Shown in pieces: positions 1-36,023 of a DNA stretch of 36,023 nt. Origin of the DNA: a virus (Duplodnaviria; Heunggongvirae; Uroviricota; Caudoviricetes). A program made the position numbers and the translations under genes. The notes under the pieces are model-generated. The model saw only the letters and a list, made by a program, of their open reading frames with translations. It was not told where the DNA came from and made no database searches. The stretch's first letter is position 1; every line of letters begins with the position of its first letter. The stretch lies in IMG/VR virus record IMGVR_UViG_2778261035_000011, one strand, 5' to 3'.

Positions 1-447
1 TCAGTTTCGTTTACATTTATATGTCTTAAAAATATTCACATCATCTCGGATATAAAGATTTTTTCCTGATTTATCAACGATAAAATACTTTATAACCGCA
101 GGATTTCTAGTCAAAGCATAGAGATAATCAGTCCCTTTAATCTTTTCATCCTTGTCTTGTTCGTCAATTTGGCCTGTTTCTATCTGAGTGTATAGTTCAC
201 CTGTATCAAGGTCTGTCCATGACCCCATATCAACGCCCATATGCATACGAATACCGTGGCAGGTCCAAAAACCAGAGGCAGGGGCTTTATTTGCAACACT
301 CTTATCTGGATCTATCCCGGCGGACCTTAAGACTGCATCAGCAGCCACTTCAGGATCAAAATCTTTTTCTTGAGCGTGATTGACTGAGGAGGCGGTTAGT
401 ACGAATAGGCTGATGATGGTACTGATTAGCAATTTTGATTTTTTCAT
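1..447 (-). CDS. small secreted protein of unknown function (predicted signal peptide, two Cys); possible cargo/moron gene beyond mom
   Basis: ORF 1..477 minus ends with stop at 1-3. Internal ATG at 447 is preceded by a GGAG-like RBS and gives N-terminus MKKSKLLISTIISLFVLTASSVNHA followed by QEK, a typical Sec signal with AxA-like cleavage site. Region is visibly AT-rich compared with the rest of the window. No family recognised. Confidence 0.5.
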   Translation of the reverse strand: MKKSKLLISTIISLFVLTASSVNHAQEKDFDPEVAADAVLRSAGIDPDKSVANKAPASGFWTCHGIRMHMGVDMGSWTDLDTGELYTQIETGQIDEQDKDEKIKGTDYLYALTRNPAVIKYFIVDKSGKNLYIRDDVNIFKTYKCKRN

Positions 448-491
448 CTGATATGCTCCGTATGTGAGTAAATACATAAATTTATATGATA

Positions 492-1229
492 CTAATCAGA
501 ACTGCTTTTTGGGTATGGCTGAATCCTGAATAGATTAGTATTTAGTCGCTTCCTTGCTCGCTTGTTCAGGAACCTGATGTAGCGATACTGATTAAATTTG
601 TGCACCACGGCACGCTCTTTATTAGCCCGTAAATACACGCCTCGTTGTCCACCGCGCTTAATTGCGTTCATCGTTATCTCGTGATACCACTCACCATCCA
701 GCTCGTAGAACGTGCTTTCATGGCTGCCAATAAAATCAAAATTCGACGCCTGATACACAACGCCTGCGCGTCCGCAGCGTTCGTCAGCAAAGGACTGAAC
801 CCACTCCACTGACGGATACAGTAATCTGATAACTTTCAGCGCGTAGCTGATGGCCCGTGATTCAGAGTTGCGGGGCATGTCGTCGTGTAGCCACATGCGA
901 TTCAACTCCATATAGCCCCGGTTATCCGTTTCAAGCACGACACGACGACCTGAGTTGGGGTTAAGGGCATATCCCCACTGGAGAACGCCAACCAGATCGC
1001 GTCCGCTGAATACTCCTAGGTGGAGGTAAGAGTTATTCACAAAACGGCGGGAATAGTGCTTTGTCTGAATAATTGTGCGGGCCAGCCAGCAGGATATGGT
1101 TTCAACGCGCAGCTCCTTTGAACCATAGCCAACAATCTGGCCTTCATACTCAATAACGCACGGTTTCGTCAGAATGCGTGATTTTTTCTCTTTTCCCACA
1201 ATGTTTCTCCGTGGGATGCTCGCAGGCAT
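492..1229 (-). CDS. mom: Mom DNA-modification protein (adenine modification, anti-restriction)
   Basis: Position directly after com with 5' end overlapping the com 3' end, as in phage Mu; length about 235-245 aa. Exact start uncertain: ATG at 1229 or in-frame GTG at 1199. Confidence 0.85.
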
Positions 1230-1338
1230 TCAGCATTATGATGTGACGTTTGCAACGCGGACACCTGATTTCAATGTGATCAAAGGAATCCGCCTTAAAT
1301 AACAGTTTGTTGCAGTTTTTACAGCGAATTGATTTCAT
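1150..1338 (-). CDS. com: Com zinc-finger translational activator of mom
   Basis: 62 aa, [13 protein letters not shown]...CPRCKRH with four-Cys zinc finger; AAAGGAGG RBS upstream of ATG at 1338; 3' end overlaps mom 5' end. Confidence 0.9.
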
Positions 1339-1412
1339 CTCACCTCCTTTGCATCAATTCGCCACTATCTTAAAAAACATCATGGGTTGAGTGTGGTTAT
1401 TGGGGCATAATC

Positions 1413-1447
1413 GATCTGTATTACCGATCGATTTAATTGATTCGATC
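1413..1447. promoter_or_regulatory. cluster of three GATC (Dam) sites in the mom operon upstream control region
   Basis: GATC at 1413-1416, 1426-1429 and 1444-1447, lying 75-110 bp upstream of the com start on the transcribed side and overlapping the gin stop codon. Matches the known Dam/OxyR-controlled region of Mu Pmom. Confidence 0.6.
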
Positions 1448-2014
1448 GTCGTTTTCTATATGCGCTCGTTTCGCGGGGTGTTTTTTATACAGAGTTGACA
1501 GGGCCACATCGTAGATCAATGCAACCTGCTTGCGGGGGATTCCTTGTGCTAATAAACGCCCGGCCTGCTCCCATTCCGCTTTGGTTAGTTTAGGTGGTCG
1601 CCCACCAATACGGCCTTTATTTCTGGCGGCAGCAAGTCCAGCCATCGTTCGCTCGATGATTAGTTCTCGTTCCATTTCAGCCAGGGCACCCATAACGTGG
1701 AAGAAAAAACGCCCCATTGGAGAAGATGTGTCTATGCTGTCGGTCAGACTGCGAAAATTAATCCCTCGCTCCCGTAGTTCCCCGACGAGAGAAATCAGAT
1801 GTTTCATGCTTCGCCCGAGGCGATCCAGTTTCCAGACAACCAGCGTGTCACCTTTTTGAAGGCGTTTTAAAGCGCGTTTTAATCCCGGTCGGTCTGTCTT
1901 TGTCCCGCTTAATTTATCTTCAAATATTTGTTCACATCCTGCACAAACAAGAGCGTTTCGTTGCAGGTCTGTATTCTGGTCATTTGTTGATACCCTTACA
2001 TAGCCAATCAGCAC
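1433..2014 (-). CDS. gin: Gin serine DNA invertase (resolvase/invertase family)
   Basis: 193 aa, N-terminus MLIGYVRVSTNDQNTDLQ with catalytic Ser motif typical of Hin/Gin/Cin invertases; C-terminal HTH; sits immediately outside gixR. Confidence 0.95.
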   Translation of the reverse strand: MLIGYVRVSTNDQNTDLQRNALVCAGCEQIFEDKLSGTKTDRPGLKRALKRLQKGDTLVVWKLDRLGRSMKHLISLVGELRERGINFRSLTDSIDTSSPMGRFFFHVMGALAEMERELIIERTMAGLAAARNKGRIGGRPPKLTKAEWEQAGRLLAQGIPRKQVALIYDVALSTLYKKHPAKRAHIENDDRIN

Positions 2015-2068
2015 TCTGGATCTCCCGTTTAAAAGCGCAAATCATGCCATGCAGGCCGGAAACAACCA

Positions 2069-2094
2069 TTATCTAAAACCTCGGTTTACAAGAA
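2069..2094. repeat. gixR recombination site (inverted-repeat boundary of G segment)
   Basis: TTATCTAAAACCTCGGTTTACAAGAA on plus strand; reverse complement of 4891-4916 matches at 23 of 26 positions (TTATCCAAAACGTCGGTTTACAGGAA). Confidence 0.7.
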
Positions 2095-2790
2095 CTCGGC
2101 ACAAGCGGGGAGAAAATACCGTTACTCAGTACAGCGAATACCTGGACTAATCGACAAACATTCAGCGGTGGCCTTTCTGGGGAACTGTCCGGCAATGCCG
2201 CTACTGCAACAAAGCTGAAAACAGCACGAAAAATTGCTGGAGTTGGTTTTGATGGTTCTAGCGATATTTCAATTAGTGCCAAAAATGTCAATGCATTTGC
2301 ACTCCGACAAACAGGTAATACTGTTAATGGTGATACATCCGTTGGATGGAATTGGGATAGTGGTGCATATAACGCCCTGATTGGCGGTGCATCTGCATTA
2401 ATTCTTCACTTTAATATAAATGCTGGTAGCTGCCCTGCCGTACAATTCCGTGTGAATTATAAAAATGGTGGCATTTCCTACAGGTCAGCTCGTGATGGTT
2501 ATGGGTTTGAATTAGGTTGGTCAGATTTCTATACCACGACACGAAAACCTTCAGCGGGAGATGTTGGTGCATATACGAAGGCAGAATGTAACTCAAGGTT
2601 TATTACAGGTATTCGCCTTGGCGGTCTGTCATCTGTTCAGACATGGAATGGTCCCGGCTGGTCTGACAGGTCAGGTTATGTCGTTACAGGTTCAGTTAAC
2701 GGAAACCGTGATGAATTAATTGATACAACTCAGGCAAGGCCAATTCAGTATTGCATTAATGGGACGTGGTATAACGCGGGGAGTATTTAA
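2082..2790 (+). CDS. S': alternative tail fiber variable part S'v (start-less, silent in this orientation; would fuse to constant Sc after G inversion)
   Basis: Open frame from the stop at 2074-2076 to 2790 with no credible start; begins NLGLQELG at gixR, matching NVGLQE at gixL inside S; ends INGTWYNAGSI, similar to the S C-terminus INGTWYNVAQV. Confidence 0.65.
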
Positions 2791-2792
2791 CG

Positions 2793-3326
2793 ATGATGCA
2801 CTTAAAAAACATTACTGCTGGCAACCCTAAAACAAAAGAGCAATACCAGCTAACAAAGCAATTTAACATCAAATGGCTTTATTCAGATGATGGAAAAAAC
2901 TGGTATGAGGAACAAAAGAATTTCCAGCCAGACACTTTGAAAATGGTCTATGACCATAACGGCGTTATTATTTGTATTGAAAATGATGTTTCAGCAATTA
3001 ATCCGGAAGGCGCAAGCGTCGTTGAATTACCTGATATTACAGCAAATCGCCGGGCTGATATTTCGGGGAAATGGATGTTCAAAGATGGCGTAGTGATAAA
3101 GCGAACTTATACCGAGGAAGAGCAGAGACAACAAGCGGAAAATGAAAAGCAAAGCCTGTTGCAACTTGTCAGGGATAAAACCCAGCTATGGGACTCACAG
3201 CTACGGCTGGGCATCATTTCCGACGAGAATAAGCAGAAATTAACCGAGTGGATGCTCTTTGCACAGAAAGTCGAATCTACAGACACCTCCAGCCTGCCAG
3301 TAACGTTTCCCGAACAACCAGAATGA
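2793..3326 (+). CDS. U': alternative tail fiber assembly protein U'
   Basis: 177 aa; N-terminus [22 protein letters not shown] closely parallels U ([22 protein letters not shown]); convergent with U inside the G segment. Confidence 0.8.
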   Translation: MMHLKNITAGNPKTKEQYQLTKQFNIKWLYSDDGKNWYEEQKNFQPDTLKMVYDHNGVIICIENDVSAINPEGASVVELPDITANRRADISGKWMFKDGVVIKRTYTEEEQRQQAENEKQSLLQLVRDKTQLWDSQLRLGIISDENKQKLTEWMLFAQKVESTDTSSLPVTFPEQPE

Positions 3327-3330
3327 GAGA

Positions 3331-3348
3331 AGGCCCGATATCGGGCCT
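3331..3348. terminator. bidirectional hairpin between convergent U' and U
   Basis: Perfect palindrome AGGCCCGATATCGGGCCT followed by TTAATTTTT on the plus strand; lies between the U' stop (3326) and the U stop (3355). Confidence 0.5.
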
Positions 3349-3354
3349 TAATTT

Positions 3355-3882
3355 TTACTCTGGTTTTTGTGGCCATTCTGGCTTTGCCGTATCCACGCGG
3401 CTGACCAGAACGCTGTAGCGTTCCCAGGCTTCCAGTCGTGTACGTTCCTCATCTGTTGCCATATTCAGCCTGACAGCACGTTCCAGAAGCTGGATTACTG
3501 ATTCAGCTTCTGAAAGTAACGCGGCCTTTTGTGATTCGGTCTGTTGTTGCTGTTCGTCTGCTGTATAAATCCGCTTAACCACAGTTCCGTCCTTAAACAC
3601 CCACTTCCCTGAATCATCGGCACGACGATTGGCTGTTATATCGGGAATCTCAACGACGCTAAAGCCTTCGGGATTAAGTGTTGAGGCATCTTTGGTTATG
3701 GCAACAATAATATTATTTTCGTCGTATACAATCTTTATGGTGTCGTCCTGAAAGTTATTTACTTCCTCATACCAGTTTTTACCGTCTTCGGACCATAACC
3801 AGATAACATCAAAATTTTTTGTTAGCTGATATTGTTCTTTTGTTTTTGGATTTCCGGACTTAATATTTTTTAAATGCTGCAT
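3355..3882 (-). CDS. U: tail fiber assembly protein U
   Basis: 175 aa; paralogue of U'; directly downstream of S. Confidence 0.85.
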
Positions 3883-3885
3883 AAT

Positions 3886-5412
3886 TTACACCTGTGCGAC
3901 GTTATACCATGTGCCATTGATGTATTTTTGTATTGGTCTGAAGATGGCTTCATCATCGCCATCTACTTCACCAATGATTCTTAATCCGGTAATTGCGTGT
4001 CCGGCTTTTTCATAACGACCACCACGCGCCATCAATTGAACAACACGTGTGCCAAGTCGGACATCTCTCACATAGCGTGAGTCAAAATTGCCATAATTGC
4101 CGGGAATAATTTGCGCACCACAAAGCCAGTTACCGTTATTATCCATGTACGCCTGACCATCGGTGCCATTGGACGTCCTCGAATTATTAATCATGTAAAA
4201 ACCAAACTGGTAGTTACCAAGTCCACCGACAAAAAATTTGCGTTCTGCATGGTCTTGTCTTAACAAAGCCTGCGCAGAACTTGTTGATACTGCGTTTCTA
4301 CCAAAAATGACATTCTGGTTTCGCATATCAATCCATGAGGTTGAACCACTATTAATAGCAAACCTGTTTGCATACACCCAGGCGTTAGTTGTTATATCTC
4401 CTGTAACATCCAGACCATGCCCCATAATTATGCGACCAGTTCTGAGATTAAGCGTAAAGGGGCGTAGTGGCCCTATATCACCATTTTCCCCCTCATTCTC
4501 TCGTGTAGGGATGATATGCAGGCATTCTTCAGAACGACGAAAAATGGCACCAAAAGATGAATTAAATATCCTCAGTGCATTGACTGTAGATATTTTTACT
4601 TCACTGCTGAAAAGGGCTTTAACAAGAACATACAGAGCATCCCATTTAAGATTCATCAGGTCTTTTGTTGTGGTGCTCTGGCGACTTCTCCATTTGAAAT
4701 ATTCATTGCCGTTGTCACCTGTTTCAAACCACATATATGAATCAGTATCGCTGTCGGCATCATTTTTAAATCCAATTTTTGCCCAGTCAGTATTTCGAAT
4801 CCAGGCAAGGATTGAGTCGTTTTCAAAAGTAAGCCCGCCGGACAAAGTATCGCCATTTTTTTGCACGGCGTTCCCGGCTCGGTTTACCGTTTCCTGTAAA
4901 CCGACGTTTTGGATAAACAGCGGCTTATTGGGAATATCTGCTCCGTTCCGGTCTTTTGCCAGACGGGCATTGGCATTATCCATCGCAATTTTCACCGCTT
5001 TTGCGGTGGCTGCCAGCGTTTCACTGGGGCTGTCAGTGGCACTGGTTAGCTGAACGAGTCCTTTCTTGTTCAGGCTGGCATCATAAATATCCAGATTTTC
5101 ACGTGCTGTACGCTGTGCTGATGCCCCGGCAGTTTTAATTTCGCTGAGGTTATTTTTTATCAGCAGCGCATTCTTGTTCATGATGGCTTTAATGGACAGT
5201 GCAAGCTGGTTTAATTTTGTTTTATCCGGTTGAATACCGGCTTCTTCCAGCGTGTTTAATAACTCCGCCTGCACAATATTAAACCAGTCCATGCCGGGCC
5301 ATGTGATAACATTATTCCCGTCACCTTCTGAAAACCAGCGAACGATAGCACTACGCTGGGCGGATACGGGCGGCATGACGGTTACGCCGCTGTCGTTATC
5401 AATATAAAACAT
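3886..5412 (-). CDS. S: tail fiber protein S (constant N-terminal part outside G, variable C-terminal part inside G)
   Basis: 508 aa; gixL lies within the coding sequence at the ...PLFIQNVGLQETV segment; position after R in Mu synteny. Confidence 0.85.
   Translation of the reverse strand: MFYIDNDSGVTVMPPVSAQRSAIVRWFSEGDGNNVITWPGMDWFNIVQAELLNTLEEAGIQPDKTKLNQLALSIKAIMNKNALLIKNNLSEIKTAGASAQRTARENLDIYDASLNKKGLVQLTSATDSPSETLAATAKAVKIAMDNANARLAKDRNGADIPNKPLFIQNVGLQETVNRAGNAVQKNGDTLSGGLTFENDSILAWIRNTDWAKIGFKNDADSDTDSYMWFETGDNGNEYFKWRSRQSTTTKDLMNLKWDALYVLVKALFSSEVKISTVNALRIFNSSFGAIFRRSEECLHIIPTRENEGENGDIGPLRPFTLNLRTGRIIMGHGLDVTGDITTNAWVYANRFAINSGSTSWIDMRNQNVIFGRNAVSTSSAQALLRQDHAERKFFVGGLGNYQFGFYMINNSRTSNGTDGQAYMDNNGNWLCGAQIIPGNYGNFDSRYVRDVRLGTRVVQLMARGGRYEKAGHAITGLRIIGEVDGDDEAIFRPIQKYINGTWYNVAQV
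4891..4916. repeat. gixL recombination site inside S
   Basis: Plus strand TTCCTGTAAACCGACGTTTTGGATAA, inverted partner of 2069-2094. Confidence 0.7.
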
Positions 5413-28740: not shown

Positions 28741-28923
28741 TTATTCACCTTCACAATTCATGCACGCCGTGTCATCGCCCATATCGCAGTGGTTGCATTT
28801 CTGCCCACCACAATGAGGGCACTCTTTCAGATATTCAGGGTTTTCATTACCGCAGGTCGGACATTCCTGCTTCACAGTGGTAAATGTCCCCAGCCACGAA
28901 TACGATGTTTCATTGTTTTCCAT
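28741..28923 (-). CDS. small zinc-ribbon protein (8 Cys in four CxxC-type pairs)
   Basis: 60 aa with CPTCG...CPHCG...CNHC...CMNC; GGAGG RBS upstream of ATG 28923. Confidence 0.5.
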   Translation of the reverse strand: MENNETSYSWLGTFTTVKQECPTCGNENPEYLKECPHCGGQKCNHCDMGDDTACMNCEGE

Positions 28924-29970: not shown

Positions 29971-30068
29971 GTTTTATTCCTCAGTAATCTGTTTCAGGCG
30001 CGAGCAATCCCCTGACGTATCGCGCCATAATTAAAAGAATGTGAATTAATTAAATATTAATGGTGGTA

Positions 30069-30593
30069 TTAAATACCGGCTTCCTGTTCAAATGGAATAA
30101 TAGAAAAATCCTCAATGCCTGATTTAACTGTAATTCCTGCAACACCTGCGACCGCTTTCGGTTCCAGTAAAATCGCTTCCTTGTTGATTTCCTGCTTCGT
30201 GCGAATAAAGCGTTGCAGGCCAAGACGCTCCAGCGTTTCCATCACTGCATCCATACCACGAATACTTACTGATGGTGGACGGACCCGCCACGATACATCA
30301 CCGGTGACAAGATTTGCCGTCTTCACTTTGCCGCCGTTCGTCAGTTCGTCGCGGTTCGCTTCACACCATCCCTGAACGCCTTTTGAAAGGGTTTCAATAT
30401 CGGTTTTAATCGGTGCAATCCGGGCCGCAAATTTCTCCGTAATTTCCGCGATGGCATCATTCATTTCCGTTTCCAGACGTGATGCTTCGCGCTGTAAATC
30501 CCCGATGCGTTTAATATCGGTAATCACCGCATCGCGGTTTTGTGGCACATAAGCCGCTGCGGCACTTTTGATACGTTTTGCTGGTTTAGCCAT
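30069..30593 (-). CDS. gam: Gam host-nuclease inhibitor (Ku-like DNA-end binding protein)
   Basis: 174 aa; N-terminus MAKPAKRIKSAAAAYVPQNRDAV and coiled-coil region typical of Mu Gam. Confidence 0.9.
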   Translation of the reverse strand: MAKPAKRIKSAAAAYVPQNRDAVITDIKRIGDLQREASRLETEMNDAIAEITEKFAARIAPIKTDIETLSKGVQGWCEANRDELTNGGKVKTANLVTGDVSWRVRPPSVSIRGMDAVMETLERLGLQRFIRTKQEINKEAILLEPKAVAGVAGITVKSGIEDFSIIPFEQEAGI

Positions 30594-30612
30594 AAATTAA
30601 AGCTCCTGTTAA

Positions 30613-30912
30613 TTAATATCCGCTGTATACAATGCTGGATACAGCTCGATTGCTTAATTCCATCTTTCGGGCAATGACATGAATATCCAGCCCTTCTTTA
30701 TAAAGTTCACGACATAAATATTTGTCGTGTTCACTGATTCGGTATACACACAATGATATTCCGTGCCTTCTGGCATGTGCCCGGAGGGCGGTTGTGGCGA
30801 CTTTCAGTTTTTCCGCCATTTCTTCAACGGTCATTTTCCCGACGTTGGCTTCGATAAATTCCCGGTCTTCGCGTGACCAGCGCTTACGATTACACTTCAT
30901 GTCAGCCACCAT
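30613..30912 (-). CDS. hypothetical early protein, possible HTH DNA-binding
   Basis: 99 aa; ...MTVEEMAEKLKVATTALRAHARRHG resembles a helix-turn-helix. Confidence 0.45.
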   Translation of the reverse strand: MVADMKCNRKRWSREDREFIEANVGKMTVEEMAEKLKVATTALRAHARRHGISLCVYRISEHDKYLCRELYKEGLDIHVIARKMELSNRAVSSIVYSGY

Positions 30913-31332
30913 TCAGTACAGCAGAGGCTCGCGCAGTGATGCCGGAATATGCCGCAGCGATAACTGAACCGCTTTCAGGGCAAGCGAGGAATAACAGCAG
31001 CGCGCCCAGCCTTTTGCCATTAACCGGTAATCGCGCCAGATACGCTGCCACATTTCACGGGCTTTCGGGTCTGATACACAGATGTATTCACGGTCCATGA
31101 CGTACTCCCATAAATCCACGTTAAACGCATCGCCAGACGCAATGGCGCGGGATATGCTTTCGCCACAATAACGCGCACAGATGCTGTAATGGTCGAAAGT
31201 AATCAGGTAAGTCTTTTCACCACAATCATCAACTTTCCGGGCGCAAATAAACTCGCGTAATTCACCACCGTTGTTATTGCGTTCCTGAATTCGGATTAAT
31301 GCCTGAATTTCATTTCGGATTTTGACGTTCAT
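30913..31332 (-). CDS. hypothetical early protein
   Basis: 139 aa, Cys- and Trp-rich; tightly packed in the early operon. Confidence 0.45.
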   Translation of the reverse strand: MNVKIRNEIQALIRIQERNNNGGELREFICARKVDDCGEKTYLITFDHYSICARYCGESISRAIASGDAFNVDLWEYVMDREYICVSDPKAREMWQRIWRDYRLMAKGWARCCYSSLALKAVQLSLRHIPASLREPLLY

Positions 31333-31352
31333 TGTCAGCGTTCCTTTGCGAA

Positions 31353-31622
31353 TTAATGTTTAACCGCATTCACCGGATGTGGTACTAAATCACATTCAGC
31401 TTCCATACCCACTTTCTTCATAGTGGTCAGCATCTCATCTTTGGCCTTTTTAATAATTTCAGGAGCCATAGTCAGGACGATATTTGCCAGTAAATCATGA
31501 GGCCCGGTATTTTCCGTTGGCGAGATATCTGCAAGACATGCTTTTGCATCCAGAACTTCTCTGCGCCCATTGCAACCGTCACTACTTTCCAGCCATGTAA
31601 ACTCAAAGATAACCTTTGCCAT
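31353..31622 (-). CDS. hypothetical early protein
   Basis: 89 aa; early-operon synteny. Confidence 0.45.
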   Translation of the reverse strand: MAKVIFEFTWLESSDGCNGRREVLDAKACLADISPTENTGPHDLLANIVLTMAPEIIKKAKDEMLTTMKKVGMEAECDLVPHPVNAVKH

Positions 31623-31633
31623 TTTGTTTCTCC

Positions 31634-31888
31634 TTATTGATTCTGAATAACTGCGCTGGCTTTTACCTTCGCGCCTTTTACCTGCTTAAAGAAAACCGCG
31701 CTGCACCACGGACAACATGTCAGGGAATCCCGAATTTCCTTTTCGGGTGAGCATTGCGTCATAATCTGTTCACCACATCCGGGGCATTTATATGTCGTCA
31801 GCGGCACCCCGTGGCACTGACAGTGTTTAACCCATTCAATATATTTTTCAGCTTTAATACACATCGTTATCTCCAGATAATCTGGCAA
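31634..31888 (-). CDS. Cys-rich small protein (putative zinc-binding)
   Basis: 84 aa with CQCHG...CPGCG...CCPWC motifs. Confidence 0.5.
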
Positions 31889-32094
31889 CCATTAAGACGG
31901 GCCGTCCATACAGAACGGGCCACCCCGGACTTATGCTCCATAATTCTGACCGCGCTTTTTACCAGTTCCACCGGTGGGTAAGTGATTTCAAGAATCGGAC
32001 GCGCCACACCGAGATATGATTCATTTACATGACTCCCGCGCGCCTGTAACCAGTTCTGCGCATCCGTTGCCATTTTTATATTTCGGGCCATCAT
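31867..32094 (-). CDS. small early protein directly after B (position of Mu kil/cim-type genes)
   Basis: 75 aa; first ORF after B. The kil assignment is positional only. Confidence 0.4.
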
Positions 32095-32109
32095 AATTTC
32101 TTCTCCTTC

Positions 32110-33048
32110 TTAATTACGCAGCAGCGTTGAAATATCAACGTCCAGGTCTAATTCACGGAAAGCCTGACGCAGATAATCTTCGTTAACACGCTCATCTTTA
32201 CCGTGAGCCGTCATGGCGGCAAGGCGAAGTGAATGATTCAGAATGCGAAGCGCACCTGGTTTCTGCGCAATCTGCTGTAATAACTCCAGTTCTTTTTCGC
32301 CGTTAATCTGCCAGGCATCCGCAATAGCTTTTACATCGGCTTTTTTTGTTTTATTAATTGCAGTGCGCTTTGCAATACGGGAAAACAGACGGGCAAATTC
32401 AACCGTTCTGTTACCCCCCGTCATATTTGAATAAACCCGGTGATTTCCCATCAGCACAAGGCCAATACGGGTTGATTCCTGTAACAGGCGGAGTTCTTCC
32501 AGAACTTCGGCACCAAGATGATCAGCTTCGTCGATGATAACCAGCCCCTGTGTACCTTCAAGGCGACGTCGCAGGGCGCGGGAGAGCGGCCCTTTACGGC
32601 GTGGTGCGTCATTCATTCCCAGCTCAAACGCCAGTTCAGTAAGACATTCCAGAACGCTGGCACAGGATGGCGTAATGGTGATCATCCAGACATTGTTATT
32701 GGTGCGGCGATATTCACGGGCCGCTTCGGTTTTGCCCACACCAGGATTGCCACATACAACAGCAATACTTTCAGTCAGGCTGGCAAAACGCATACTTGTC
32801 CAGATTTGTTTTACCGTCTGCGTTTCCACAAAGCGGGGCGGTTCAGGTAGTTCTGCAACTGCATGATATTTTTCCAGCCAGCGTTGCAGAATTTGTGAAA
32901 CACGCTCGTTATCCCCGTTGTACTTATCATTGATAAAACTACTGATAGTTCCGGTAGAAAGTCCGCTCTCAAGAGCAATTTGTTTAAAGGTGGTTTCTTC
33001 ATTTTCTACAAGCGTGCGCAGTCCTGCGCGAATATCGGAAATATTCAT
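32110..33048 (-). CDS. B: transposition ATPase / target DNA activator MuB
   Basis: 312 aa; Walker A VVCGNPGVGKT and Walker B LVIIDEADHL; immediately downstream of the transposase gene. Confidence 0.95.
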   Translation of the reverse strand: MNISDIRAGLRTLVENEETTFKQIALESGLSTGTISSFINDKYNGDNERVSQILQRWLEKYHAVAELPEPPRFVETQTVKQIWTSMRFASLTESIAVVCGNPGVGKTEAAREYRRTNNNVWMITITPSCASVLECLTELAFELGMNDAPRRKGPLSRALRRRLEGTQGLVIIDEADHLGAEVLEELRLLQESTRIGLVLMGNHRVYSNMTGGNRTVEFARLFSRIAKRTAINKTKKADVKAIADAWQINGEKELELLQQIAQKPGALRILNHSLRLAAMTAHGKDERVNEDYLRQAFRELDLDVDISTLLRN

Positions 33049-33086
33049 CTGAATAACCTCGTAATTAAATTTTGTTTAAACGTTAA

Positions 33087-35093
33087 TTAAATGGCTTTTT
33101 TACGTCTGTTCTGTTCCAGAATATCCAGCGAATGATTCAGATATTCATCACGCTCAGTTTCGTATTCATCATCACGCTCCTGATTCTTCACCCGTTCCAT
33201 ATTACCGGAAGGCCGGAAAATGCCGACAATTCGTGATTCTGGTGCTTCAGGTTCGGCTATCTGCGGCAGCAGCTCTGCCACTTCCAGTGCATCCATTTGT
33301 TTCTGTGCCTTAATCGCTGCTTTCGTCGCAGATTTCAGTTGTTTCTGGCGGCGGCGATATTCACGGCCTGCCGCAGCATCATTAAACGCAACAGGTGACA
33401 GACATTCCGCTTCACAGATAAACCGACCGTCCAGGGTGTAGCAATAAACCGTGCTGTGTAACTGCTGTGGATCAAATCTGACCACAACTTTTTTCACTCC
33501 GGCATTCATTAACGCCATGTTGTAATAAACGTTTTTCGCACCTTTAAGGGAGCCGCCAACTTTAAGCGCGAACTCGCCTTTACGTGAAACGTTCACCGCC
33601 TCGGCAGGCAGTAACAGCATCCGTTTTTGCTCTTCGGTAGGCTTACGCACAATCGTTCTGGCGTATTCACGCTCAAAAACGTCATCAAACGAAAGTTTGC
33701 CTCCGCACATTTCTGTTTCACGGCCTGTTCTGGCATTGAACATCGCCACACCTTCGGCAAGGGTTTTCAGAAACAGCTCTGCATCAACAGCGCGGTCGCC
33801 ATAGTTATCAGGTTTTGCCTGCGGATTAGGCCCCGTATATGCGCCAGCCAGTGCCGGATGCTTATCAACGTATTCCTCAAGCCCACCAACACCGAAAGCA
33901 CGTTCAACAGGTTTTGCCTGGCCCCAGCCTTTACCGGCAACAACGCTTGTCCAGTGCATTTTCGCCCCCATCAGTAAAAACAGTCCTTTTGGATCGTCCT
34001 CTTTTACCTTAAAGCGGTAGCGATTGGGCGCGCCTCCCGTCAGCCATTTATTCGCAGCACCACGGGTGTTATCAATGGTGATGTGAAAATCCTCCGGGAT
34101 ACCGTAGCGAGTCACAACATCCATGAACGAGAGGCGAATTGAATCAATGTTCTCGCTCACATCGCAGCGCCAGCCCAGAATTTTTCGGGTTTTCACATCC
34201 TGCCAGAACCATGTTTTCGGGCGGATCACATCACCGTTAAACCAGCGTACAAAGACGTTATGCAGATAACCGTCGCCGTTGATCCACTGCATGGCGTCCA
34301 GGTGTTCCACAGTTCGTTGTTGTGCCGGTATCAGATGCATCAGTGCATGTTCACCTTCACGGCAGGCAACAACCATTGCCTCGTTCAGTTGCTGAATCCG
34401 GCGAAAGGCCGTGGCACGGGAGGGAATACTCCAGCCATGCTCGCGGGCTGCCAGTTCCAGACGCTCATAACATTTGCGGAAGGCGGGTTTTTCCGGTCGC
34501 AGATAATCTGCAATCAGAAACTGCCAGGCATCCTCGTCAAATTCACTTTTGTGAACATTGCGACGGGATGCACCACGTCCATCAACAAGAGCAGCCGCCC
34601 AGTCAGGCTTCGCAAACTTCTGTACCTGGTAATACTTGTCACGCAAAGTGGATGCGCTGACCTGGTAATGTCCTGCAACGGTCGCAAAAGCCGTTTTTGT
34701 TGAAATCCCCTGGTTCAGCATTTCGTCTGCGGCCTGAACCGCAGGCAACCATTTTTCAGCAAGTCTGCGCTGGGAATCGCTGGCGTTATCCCATTTGCTC
34801 CACAGCGCCTCGCGATCATAATCGTGGGCTTCCAGCGTGGGGCGGGCGATTTCAAAACGGCCCATGCTTGTTTCAATCTCTCCTTGTCTAAGCAATAACG
34901 CAGCTTGCGTTTCCTTTGGTAAAGATGAGATATGAAACTCATAGGCTACTCCTCTTACCCCGTGTATCTGTCGAAACACCCACTGTTCTAACCTTGCTTT
35001 ACGAGAGATCGCGCTAGAGGATTTTGGAAGACCTATCAGCCCTTCTAATTTCTTTGCAGAAAACCAATCATTACATTGTGGTTGCATTTTCAA
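33087..35093 (-). CDS. A: DDE transposase MuA
   Basis: 668 aa; N-terminal DNA-binding domain homologous to the repressor N-terminus in this window; long central catalytic core; acidic C-terminal tail ending NRRKKAI. Confidence 0.95.
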
Positions 35094-35317
35094 TACCTCG
35101 AAGGCCAGAGGTCTCGTGGCTCAACTCCCAATGCATCGGCAATAATTCTTTCACCCCGAGGGTAAGGTTTATCCAAGGCATTTTTTACCGTAGAGATAGA
35201 GAGACCGTTCTCACGACCAAGAGCTGCTAGGCTTTTTCCTCTTTTGCGCAGATCAGCAACAATGTCGTATCTGCTTTTGTCTTCACATTTACTTTTCTTT
35301 ATCGCCATAAAATGCAA
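35090..35317 (-). CDS. ner: Ner-like DNA-binding regulator (negative regulator of repressor and early transcription)
   Basis: 75 aa; ...[38 protein letters not shown] matches the Ner/Nlp family signature; divergent from c across the operator region. Confidence 0.85.
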
Positions 35318-35504
35318 TCCTCACAAGCTACGCCATCAGCTACGCCGCAAGGTAGCTGACAAGGTATGCAGCAATGTTAGTGTGAATACATTGTCAATGC
35401 AATGATGTATTCAAATATTTCGTTTGAATTTCATCTATCTTGATGATTTTAAAATGAATATATTTTTGTTTCTTTGAATACATGGTGTATTTAAAGCGAG
35501 GTTT
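35318..35504. promoter_or_regulatory. operator / divergent promoter region between ner and c (expected Pe, Pc and transposition enhancer)
   Basis: AT-rich 187-bp gap with repeated TGAATA(CA) motifs in both orientations (35384-35390, 35406-35413 inverted, 35424-35429, 35453-35458, 35475-35482). Confidence 0.6.
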
Positions 35505-36023
35505 GTGATGACACAAGAATGGTTTTCAGCTAAAGAGCTACAAGGGGTTGCTGGTCTTCCGTCTTCAGCAAGTAGTATTAGCCGCAAAGCAACTAATGAG
35601 GGATGGAAAAAGAGACAGATCAAAGGAGTAAAGGGAGTTGCTTATGAATACCATATCAGCTCATTACCTGATGCCACTCAGGCAGAATTAGGAGGGGCGC
35701 AGTTATTAGATAGCGATAAGCCAGCTTATAAGTTAGCTTCTGTGTTAATGGCTTTGGTCGCAGAGTTAGAACCAGAGGAAATCCAGAGGGCATTAAAGCT
35801 ACTTAGTAAAGGCGGACTTGGAGCACTAATGCCAAGTATCTTTGATCAGACTCAAATCCAATCTCTGCACGGCGTATCGCGTGAGTGCATACAACTAGCC
35901 CAAATGCTAGAAACTTTACCAGCAGATGCGCGCAAAGAGATTTTGTCAGAGTATGGTATTCATGAACAGGAAGGTTTTGTAGCTCCTTCACAAGAACCAC
36001 AAGATGTAAAAAAAGCCGTATAA
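35505..36023 (+). CDS. c: Mu-type repressor c
   Basis: 172 aa; N-terminal domain shares long identical stretches with the MuA N-terminus here (WFSAKEL.G..GLP.S.S.ISRKA; GV.GVAYE.HISSLP); C-terminus ...[28 protein letters not shown]; divergent from ner. Confidence 0.9.

Follow-up and report, generated by a model that had tools for sequence, protein, structure and literature searches.

The five small minus-strand open reading frames (ORFs) that separate the transposition gene B from gam in the window, the whole 36,023-nucleotide stretch of viral DNA analysed here, are by sequence comparison kil (gp5), gp6 (E5), gp7 (E6), gp8 (E7) and gp9 (E8) of phage Mu. The window amounts to a Mu-family prophage that is almost complete, with kil-gp6-gp7-gp8-gp9 as a block in the non-essential early region of this transposable element; the block is read, if Mu is a guide, within the early operon right after transposition genes A and B, and gives rise to five small soluble proteins that would be produced early and act on the host. 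The preferred explanation, to which a probability of roughly 0.8 is assigned, is that of a Mu kil-gp9 early block, combined with an action of gp7 on the cell surface and with the roles proposed below for gp6, gp8 and gp9. The present analysis demonstrated the identity and coding status of the genes, the mosaicism of the region and how gp7 is structured into alleles.

Because its five genes have long been catalogued in Mu, the locus is ordinary, with gp7 as the exception. The genes are already known, the locus was covered earlier by a published screen of accessory genes, and the finding as originally posed adds little; gp7 is the one modest lead.

Identity and coding status of the five genes

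The ORFs occupy positions 30613-32094 and measure, from gp9 to kil, 99, 139, 89, 84 and 75 aa (Table 1). They lie where the original prediction had placed them, in what in Mu is the kil region, with B and gam on either side, and in the gene order of the annotated Mu and D108 maps. The DNA of the region is 98.8% identical to that of Mu_3F6 and, across 91% of its extent, to that of Mu. Mu kil (Mup05), Mup06/E5, Mup08/E7 and Mup09/E8 (NC_000929, M64097) are arranged alike in order, strand and spacing; the window proteins differ from these four by 0-5 substitutions each and in nothing material. All five proteins could be assigned to PHROG families. The original prediction took the identities to be unassignable from sequence, which is incorrect: four of the five proteins, Kil, gp6, gp8 and gp9, are 96-100% identical to their Mu counterparts, and the fifth, gp7, matches hypothetical proteins from Mu-like prophages at 100% identity.

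Table 1. Features of the kil-gp9 block and its flanks (positions in the window)
Feature	Position	Strand	Remarks
MuB transposition ATPase (flank)	32110..33048	-	Phage-MuB_C 1.5e-33, AAA_22 2.7e-21 (Pfam); 310/312 identical to Mu B
kil (Mu gp5), 75 aa	31867..32094	-	first gene after B
gp6 (Mu E5), 76 aa, basic, Cys-rich	31634..31864	-	start moved from 31888 (most likely)
gp7 (Mu E6 slot), 89 aa, acidic, "window-type" allele	31353..31622	-	third allele class
Variable DNA cassette, ~250 bp	31347..31598	.	gp7 body after codon 8, to stop codon
gp8 (Mu E7), 139 aa	30913..31332	-	lineage-restricted protein
gp9 (Mu E8), 99 aa (95 aa from M5 at 30900), basic	30613..30912	-	predicted tandem-HTH protein
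Gam (flank)	30069..30593	-	Phage_Mu_Gam 4e-42 (Pfam); 174/174 identical to Mu Gam

All five ORFs are real genes. Each is preceded by a Shine-Dalgarno sequence or begins at a stop/start junction, the genes share one orientation with intergenic gaps of 0-20 nt, every ORF is kept in frame across 46 related loci, and purifying selection acts on all of them (dN/dS 0.09-0.41 within allele classes). Chance open frames might be suspected, since all five ORFs are short and three belong to no Pfam family, but with in-frame conservation in 46 loci, dN/dS well below 1 and a ribosome-binding site before every ORF this reading has a negligible probability; ORFs of the mechanical kind are those that the ORF list places on the opposite strand of the region. 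The old M64097 record lists only a few of these opposite-strand ORFs, which it labels "putative". Promoter- and terminator-like sites are not in excess in the region, which has no match in Rfam, and transmembrane segments were found in none of the five proteins.

A different view of the locus, that of the original prediction, is that the ORFs are novel and unassignable, with the Cys-rich protein as the prime new anti-defence candidate. All five proteins match catalogued Mu-family proteins, and roles have been described only for Kil and, by virtue of its slot, gp7; to that extent the view has something in its favour, as it has in the behaviour of gp6, which like an accessory gene is found in some loci, missing from others and in others again exchanged for a 70-aa protein. 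Against it, the records M64097 and NC_000929 already annotate kil and E5-E8, a PADLOC search of the region returned no meaningful matches, and Mu gp6 (100% identical) and Mu gp8 were both among the 200 genes screened for counter-defence and toxicity in wild E. coli, with no phenotype reported for either (Silas et al.). The view is largely refuted as to novelty and is improbable as a whole.

Allele structure of gp7

What sets the locus apart, and went unnoticed in the original prediction, is the gp7 gene, a divergent allele that has been swapped in. Whereas its flanks are ~100% identical to those of Mu and D108, gp7 itself shares only 25% of its residues with the Mu protein and 39% with that of D108. 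Measured in 40-nt windows, DNA identity to Mu and D108 drops from 0.95-1.00 to 0.25-0.78 only within the variable cassette, the borders of which were taken from a three-way alignment of the window, Mu and D108. The gp7 slot always holds one of three deep allele classes (46 loci), which occur at similar frequency, in 19, 20 and 13 of 5426 complete E. coli genomes, and combine freely with gp6 states and B types among the 46 loci. Of the 46 IMG/VR loci, 10 carry the window-type allele (97-100% identity), as do 19 of the 5426 E. coli genomes. This allele is present also in Yersinia and Cronobacter, which counts against a serotype-specific target.

Window gp7 matches PHROG 2230 over residues 1-89 of 89 (E = 6e-36), and Mu gp7 falls in PHROG 10252. 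D108 gp7 (YP_003335755.1) and its variants resemble window gp7 in belonging to PHROG 2230, in their length of 89 aa and in the invariant residues MAKVIFEF, SP, GPHD and EII, but the overall identity is only 39%: the two types are 51% identical in the helices and 11% in the hairpin (residues 9-33). A word-indexed homologue search with window gp7 returned seven close relatives and missed the D108 type, which was recovered by using D108 gp7 as query.

An AF2 model of the window allele (pLDDT 78.7) consists of a beta-hairpin and two helices. Among viral structures the model is best matched by an 82-aa protein (TM 0.68/0.73) at 24% identity, the value expected of a Mu-type gp7. In all three classes codons 1-8 have dN = 0 with dS = 0.18-0.52; the hairpin evolves at dN/dS ~0.5 and the remainder at 0.15-0.26. 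Profiles of the window/D108 type align with Mu-type gp7 colinearly and over the full length, but weakly (12-14 bits). When trimmed alignments of the two were compared with hhalign only residues 1-13 aligned, and tblastn found no similarity between window gp7 and NP_050611.1. Homology of window gp7 to Mu gp7 can thus be taken as established for the first ~13 residues only.

A proposed surface function for gp7

Mu gp7 (E6, Mup07, NP_050611.1) is the accessory gene gnarl2 (Silas et al. 2025 Nat Commun, PMC12373910), which shifts O-antigen bands downwards and renders wild E. coli susceptible to T5 (PMC12373910; bioRxiv 10.1101/2023.04.06.535777). Given this, and the killing of the host by Mu Kil, it had been fair to name the small ORFs as candidates for host manipulation. 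Affinity purification-mass spectrometry (AP-MS) on gnarl2 gave no clear pattern (PMC12373910), and a literature search found no paper following up its target. Gnarl2 (87 aa) and window gp7 (89 aa) both lie in the slot that gp6 and gp8 flank, and they are acidic, soluble proteins with a MAKVI-E- N-terminus, a C-terminal His and similar predicted strand-strand-helix-helix patterns; they are set apart by their low identity, their PHROG assignments and a profile homology that ends at residue ~13.

Window gp7 would be placed as a divergent member of a gnarl2 slot family, whose scaffold of conserved N-terminal strand and helices appears to carry a hypervariable beta-hairpin that probably determines which host protein is bound. 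The protein most likely binds and inhibits a host factor of envelope-polysaccharide (LPS/O-antigen) biosynthesis, and would in this way alter the surface of the infected or induced cell, a surface that serves Mu-family phages as receptor (LPS core for Mu, O-antigen for SfMu; PMC4406740). The logic proposed here, that of a non-enzyme phage protein of <100 aa altering LPS/O-antigen through inhibition of a host enzyme, is also that of Gnarl3, which binds GalU, and of Iap of Pseudomonas phage D3, which blocks the O-antigen polymerase (PMC12373910); neither has a sequence relationship to the gp7 family. It may tentatively be suggested that the slot is a balanced polymorphism, at least three-way, on one scaffold, with the hairpin retargeting the protein among envelope-polysaccharide factors or evading sensors.

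If so, window-type gp7 would alter LPS/O-antigen in a set of hosts other than that of gnarl2, and natural specificity variants would be at hand for finding the gnarl2 target. The window carries one of two further natural classes that share the N-terminal strand, and likely the scaffold, of gnarl2. The classes differ completely in the 25-residue hairpin, so that their comparison could map specificity cheaply.

An alternative that is no more than possible has window gp7 as an unrelated or re-purposed gene, not equivalent in function to gnarl2 and sharing with it only an 8-codon N-terminal junction; its role might then be, for example, to inhibit an intracellular defence system or to exclude related phages. 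The absence of an hhalign match past residue ~13 and the different PHROGs do mean that the functions could differ, and the 25% identity and the sharp borders of what is a swappable cassette point the same way, as does the idea behind the Silas et al. screen, namely that phage accessory slots often house unrelated genes. Yet the lengths are nearly equal in a slot that always holds one of three classes, HMM alignments run colinearly from end to end, the hydrophobic strand-strand-helix-helix patterns are similar, and no match to PADLOC or to another family points elsewhere. Moreover, the N-terminal octapeptide is kept despite synonymous change (dN = 0, dS up to 0.52).

The diversity of gp7 might instead reflect escape from host immune sensors that recognise gp7 and trigger abortive infection, and not a diversity of targets. 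This is unlikely as the sole cause. The exposed hairpin is where variation is focused, whether classes are compared with one another or members of one class, three alleles are maintained at similar frequency, and gnarl2 (orf63) is listed among accessory genes with lethality in only some wild hosts (bioRxiv 10.1101/2023.04.06.535777), all of which sensor escape would accommodate. However, the lethality of orf63 was not taken further in that preprint, and the dN/dS of the hairpin is ~0.5, not >1. Sensor escape is in any case compatible with, and not exclusive of, the preferred explanation in which gp7 acts on the envelope polysaccharide.

kil, gp6, gp8 and gp9

Among Mu Kil, gp6, gp8 and gp9 a phenotype has been described for Kil only. 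Expression of Mu Kil leads to host killing and spherical cells (Waggoner 1989, as cited in PMC3961180). The database label of Mu Kil, "septation inhibitor", is here corrected to agree with that cited phenotype. The kil gene starts at 32094, just downstream of the B stop at 32110, with an ATGATG preceded by a GAAGGAG Shine-Dalgarno sequence. Its product is identical to Mu Kil at 73 of 75 residues and to D108 Kil at 74 of 75, matches PHROG 2743 (E = 4e-43), and is under strong constraint (dN/dS = 0.09).

The Cys-rich ORF had been read from a TTG at 31888. This long form of 84 aa would overlap kil, and the start is most likely the ATG at 31864, which has a GGAG 6 nt upstream and corresponds to the start in the Mu, D108, Mu_3F6 and PhiR68_1 annotations. 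The resulting 76-aa gp6 is identical to Mu gp6 at 76 of 76 residues and matches PHROG 3786 (E = 1e-40). Three CxxC-type pairs had been claimed for it, two of which hold: CPGC (C27xxC30) and C-CPWC (C51-C52xxC55) are invariant in all gp6 alleles, and form two CxxC knuckles ~20 residues apart, whereas the third is a CQCH (CxCH; C15xC17H) that varies and reads RVQNN in a common allele. The two conserved pairs fit a zinc ribbon. Matches to FmdB/CxxC zinc-ribbon models are weak, and all curated models score below their cut-offs: TIGR02605 at 18.0 (cut-off 31.3), NF047912 at 16.8 (37) and Pfam Zn_ribbon_ACC at 14.7 (24.5). About half of the related prophages have lost gp6 or carry a replacement. The protein is best viewed as a probably dispensable accessory protein with a predicted zinc ribbon.

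The gp8 protein is identical to Mu gp8 at 134 of 139 residues and matches PHROG 3690 over its full length (E = 2e-95), with no match in Pfam, NCBIfam, PADLOC or PDB by sequence or profile. A profile search of 1.84 billion representatives yielded a single full-length cluster together with two remote relatives, which did not suffice to deepen the alignment, and a scan of genome contigs gave no relatives; the AF2 model, made from a 12-sequence alignment, was unusable (pLDDT 41.5). One remote relative, P0073 (PHROG 3690, E = 5e-10), is encoded between B and a Kil homologue, and gp8 may be a conserved partner, specific to the Mu lineage, in the B/kil neighbourhood.

The last gene of the block, gp9, begins with an ATG directly abutted by the TGA of gp8 (TGA/ATG), and its conserved start may be M5, at 30900. 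The protein is identical to Mu gp9 at 98 of 99 residues and to D108 gp9 at all 99, and it matches part of the 319-position profile of PHROG 323, "transcriptional regulator, D5-like" (E = 7e-29). The helix-turn-helix (HTH)-like segment that had been noted in it was seen again, as two stretches and not one (residues ~26-50 and ~69-95), with Pfam and NCBIfam HTH matches on both halves that all fall under the curated cut-offs. BLAST detected no internal repeat. A weak match to PDB 2lvs_A (Cbp2) spans both repeats of gp9, and each of the two repeats of 2lvs_A can be aligned with the gp9 motif ELYK-G-----IA. Archaeal tandem-HTH repeat-binding proteins (NCBIfam HTH_Cbp1, PDB 2lvs) likewise have two HTH repeats; with E = 0.003-0.007, far under the curated cut-offs, the resemblance is one of architecture only. 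The predicted role of gp9 is that of a small two-HTH regulator that would bind DNA. In the Mu_3F6 record gp9 carries the label COG1209, dTDP-glucose pyrophosphorylase, which would imply a link to O-antigen synthesis. For a 95-aa HTH protein, and with no support for the label in Pfam or NCBIfam, this is a misannotation, and it is corrected here.

Organization of the region between B and gam

The window holds an almost complete Mu-family genome, whose late region shares 97-98% identity with D108, Mu and PhiR68_1, and the five small ORFs of 75 to 139 aa lie between B and gam just as originally predicted from the sequence. The accompanying claim that their identities could not be assigned does not hold, as all five genes are already known and annotated: they match catalogued Mu-family genes, each has a PHROG family, and the gene order (kil/Mup05, Mup06/E5, Mup07/E6, Mup08/E7, Mup09/E8) is that of the annotated Mu (NC_000929, M64097) and D108 maps. 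By megablast, positions 30000-33100 are 98.8% identical to Mu_3F6 with 100% of the query covered, and 98.8% identical to Mu over 91% of the query, split in two pieces.

Features of the early region and other segments of the window
Feature	Position	Strand	Length (aa)	Identity to Mu protein	PHROG	Remarks
Five ORFs	30613-32094	-	99, 139, 89, 84, 75			between B and gam
Kil (gp5)	31867-32094	-	75	73/75	2743	
gp6	31634-31888	-	84	76/76	3786	length from TTG start
gp7		-	89	25%	2230	39% identical to D108 gp7
gp7 variable interval	~31598-31347					codon 9 through stop codon
gp8		-	139	134/139	3690	
gp9	30613-30912	-	99	98/99	323	PHROG name 'transcriptional regulator, D5-like'
Gam homologue	30069-30593	-		174/174		flanks the five ORFs
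MuB homologue	32110-33048			310/312		flanks the five ORFs on the other side
Transposase A	33087-35093	-				farther along the same strand, with ner
Repressor-like ORF		opposite				cut by window end
Mu gp13/E14 homologue	28741-28923	-	60			downstream of gam
Immunity end	34926-36023					A N-terminus, ner, repressor start
First 5 kb	1-5000					G+C 0.42-0.47

All five genes are in frame across 46 related IMG/VR loci, and comparison of allele pairs of the same class gives dN/dS values of 0.09 (kil), 0.26 (gp6), 0.18-0.41 (gp7), 0.18 (gp8) and 0.28 (gp9). Shine-Dalgarno sequences lie 6-9 nt upstream of the minus-strand starts of kil, gp6 (ATG at 31864), gp7, gp8 and gam, and the ATG of gp9 follows immediately on the TGA that ends gp8. 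Promoter- and terminator-like sites are not over-represented in the region, and Rfam gives no match, the pattern expected of a run-through early operon, as which the genes would be transcribed by analogy with Mu. None of the five proteins has a transmembrane segment; the gp7 alleles are acidic, and Kil, gp6, gp8 and gp9 are basic.

The gp7 cassette

On either side of the variable interval of gp7, the DNA matches Mu and D108 at an identity of 0.95-1.00, which falls to 0.25-0.78 only within this sharply bounded interval. Variability of ORF6 and ORF7 was already noted in the SfMu paper (PMC4406740). The gp7 slot is filled in all 46 loci, by a Mu-type (87 aa), D108-type (89 aa) or window-type (89 aa) allele, each with sub-variants and each combining freely with gp6 states and B types. 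Among 5426 complete E. coli genomes, the three types occur in 20, 13 and 19, respectively, and window-type variants (76-90% identity) are also carried by Yersinia and Cronobacter. Variation is focused on a hairpin, residues 9-33, which is 11% identical between the window and D108 types, as against 51% for the helices. Within classes the hairpin is 58-67% identical and the remainder 80-87%, with dN/dS of ~0.5 and 0.15-0.26, respectively.

Mu gp7 (E6/Mup07, NP_050611.1) is the 'gnarl2' (orf63) of Silas et al.; on expression it shifts the O-antigen bands of ECOR1 and ECOR22 downwards and increases T5 infection 10^5-6-fold (PMC12373910; bioRxiv 10.1101/2023.04.06.535777). A literature search found no later paper on its mechanism. 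The window-type and Mu-type proteins are of about equal length and have a C-terminal His in common, and all gp7 classes, Mu-type included, begin with MAKVI[F/I]E[F/I]. In every class dN is 0 over this N-terminus, with dS of 0.18-0.52, so that the constraint acts on the protein and not on a DNA recombination anchor alone. HMM alignments of the two types are weak, but full-length and colinear. The AF2 model of window gp7 (pLDDT 78.7) consists of a hairpin (3-16/19-32) and helices (41-51 and 53-70); among viral structures it is closest to an unnamed 82-aa protein (TM 0.68/0.73), with 24% identity, the value expected for Mu-type gp7. Profile-profile comparison of the two types aligns residues 1-13 alone and their PHROGs differ, so that window gp7 is not an established member of the gnarl2 family. 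That the two types share a slot is established, and that they share a scaffold is likely.

Window gp7 may be pictured as a small acidic binder, in which a conserved scaffold would present a variable hairpin that chooses the partner. Its most probable action, with a probability of about 0.35-0.4, is to inhibit a host envelope-polysaccharide factor; the receptor is the LPS core for Mu and the O-antigen for SfMu (PMC4406740). One rival reading is that the slot holds a different function in the window. Another is that escape from host sensors drives gp7 diversification, as suggested by the listing of gnarl2 among genes lethal only in some wild hosts (bioRxiv 10.1101/2023.04.06.535777). The locus was already used in a published screen of accessory genes. 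What is new is only that the window holds a so far untested class of allele in the gnarl2 slot, with its hairpin-focused pattern of variation.

The Cys-rich gp6

The ORF predicted to be Cys-rich is indeed so, although its TTG start at 31888 overlaps kil, and the ATG at 31864 is favoured, with GGAG 6 nt upstream and annotation as the start in Mu, Mu_3F6 and PhiR68_1. Of the three CxxC-type pairs proposed, C27xxC30 and C51-C52xxC55 are invariant, but the 'first pair', C15-Q-C17-H, is not conserved, being replaced by RVQNN in a common 78%-identical allele and changed in others too. The protein is therefore predicted to be two-knuckle and zinc-ribbon-like; every match to zinc-ribbon family models is sub-threshold.

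The gp6 slot is optional. Across the 46 loci it is intact in 26, frameshifted in one, replaced in five, empty in 12 (handles given: L031-L033, L036-L041, L043-L046) and not covered in two. The replacement, between kil and gp7 in L016, L024, L028, L029 and L030, is an unrelated acidic 70-aa protein (MMVINIHD..., PHROG 3375); where the slot is empty, kil lies directly upstream of gp7 and abuts it. Mu gp6, 100% identical to that of the window, is UDP0137 'Zn finger' in the 200-gene library of Silas et al., and is not among the genes with a reported phenotype. The Mu counterpart of a second small Cys-rich ORF, the double-zinc-ribbon gp13/E14 homologue, is UDP0114 'Double Zn finger' in the same library.

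gp9, gp8 and Kil

The HTH-like segment proposed for gp9 is partly borne out: HTH-type models match at two separate stretches, ~residues 26-50 and again 69-95, with every score short of the curated cut-off. Both repeats of PDB 2lvs_A, presumably the tandem-HTH protein Cbp2, are weakly matched by a profile built from gp9 variants (E = 0.007). Residues 1-4 vary and M5 is invariant, and a 95-aa form is annotated in two records. In Mu_3F6 (L051 914-1201 = LR595867.1 5603-5890) this form is labelled 'COG1209 dTDP-glucose pyrophosphorylase', a database misannotation, as no family search backs it.

gp8 has no match in Pfam, NCBIfam, PADLOC or PDB, and its AF2 model is unusable (pLDDT 41.5). Against 1.84 billion representative proteins, its profile recovered a single full-length cluster and two remote relatives, besides fragments. 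One relative, P0073 (PHROG 3690, E = 5e-10), has MuB on one side and a Kil homologue on the other on a distant Mu-like contig, which places gp8 in the B/kil neighbourhood of a wider set of transposable phages. The distant Mu-like element L050 (Logan SRR22184585 contig, 3017 bp) encodes A, B, a gp8-like protein (113 aa), a Kil-like one (80 aa) and an uncharacterised 117-aa ORF, in that order; the gp8 relative precedes kil there, and neither gp6 nor gp7 occupies that position. Two further database proteins, P0008 (Logan contig, 231 aa), in which a frameshifted Mu-type gp7 is fused to gp8, and P0031, which resembles frameshifted gp8, probably reflect prophage decay or faulty assembly. Mu gp8 is UDP0119 in the Silas et al. 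library, and no phenotype was reported for it in that screen.

Kil is labelled 'protein for bacterial septation inhibition' in RefSeq and PHROG. As summarized in PMC3961180 from the literature it cites, Mu Kil makes cells spherical, kills the host and bears no relation to the Kil proteins of lambda and Rac. On that account spherical cells point to inhibition of elongation, and the database name is doubtful.

Mosaicism

The immunity end of the window is unlike Mu, D108 and SfMu, matches to which end at query ~1926, and Escherichia phage PhiR68_1 (PV340575.1) alone matches it at 100%, whereas the kil-gam block is nearer Mu_3F6 (98.8%) than PhiR68_1 (97.5%); the genome is therefore mosaic. In L008, L013, L031-L035, L037, L038, L040 and L047, B is only 40-44% identical to that of the window and kil to gam is 84-100% identical, so that B, too, is exchanged as a module. 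The first 5 kb, presumably the phage end that carries the tail fibre, invertible segment and mom, are low in G+C relative to the late region (~0.55).
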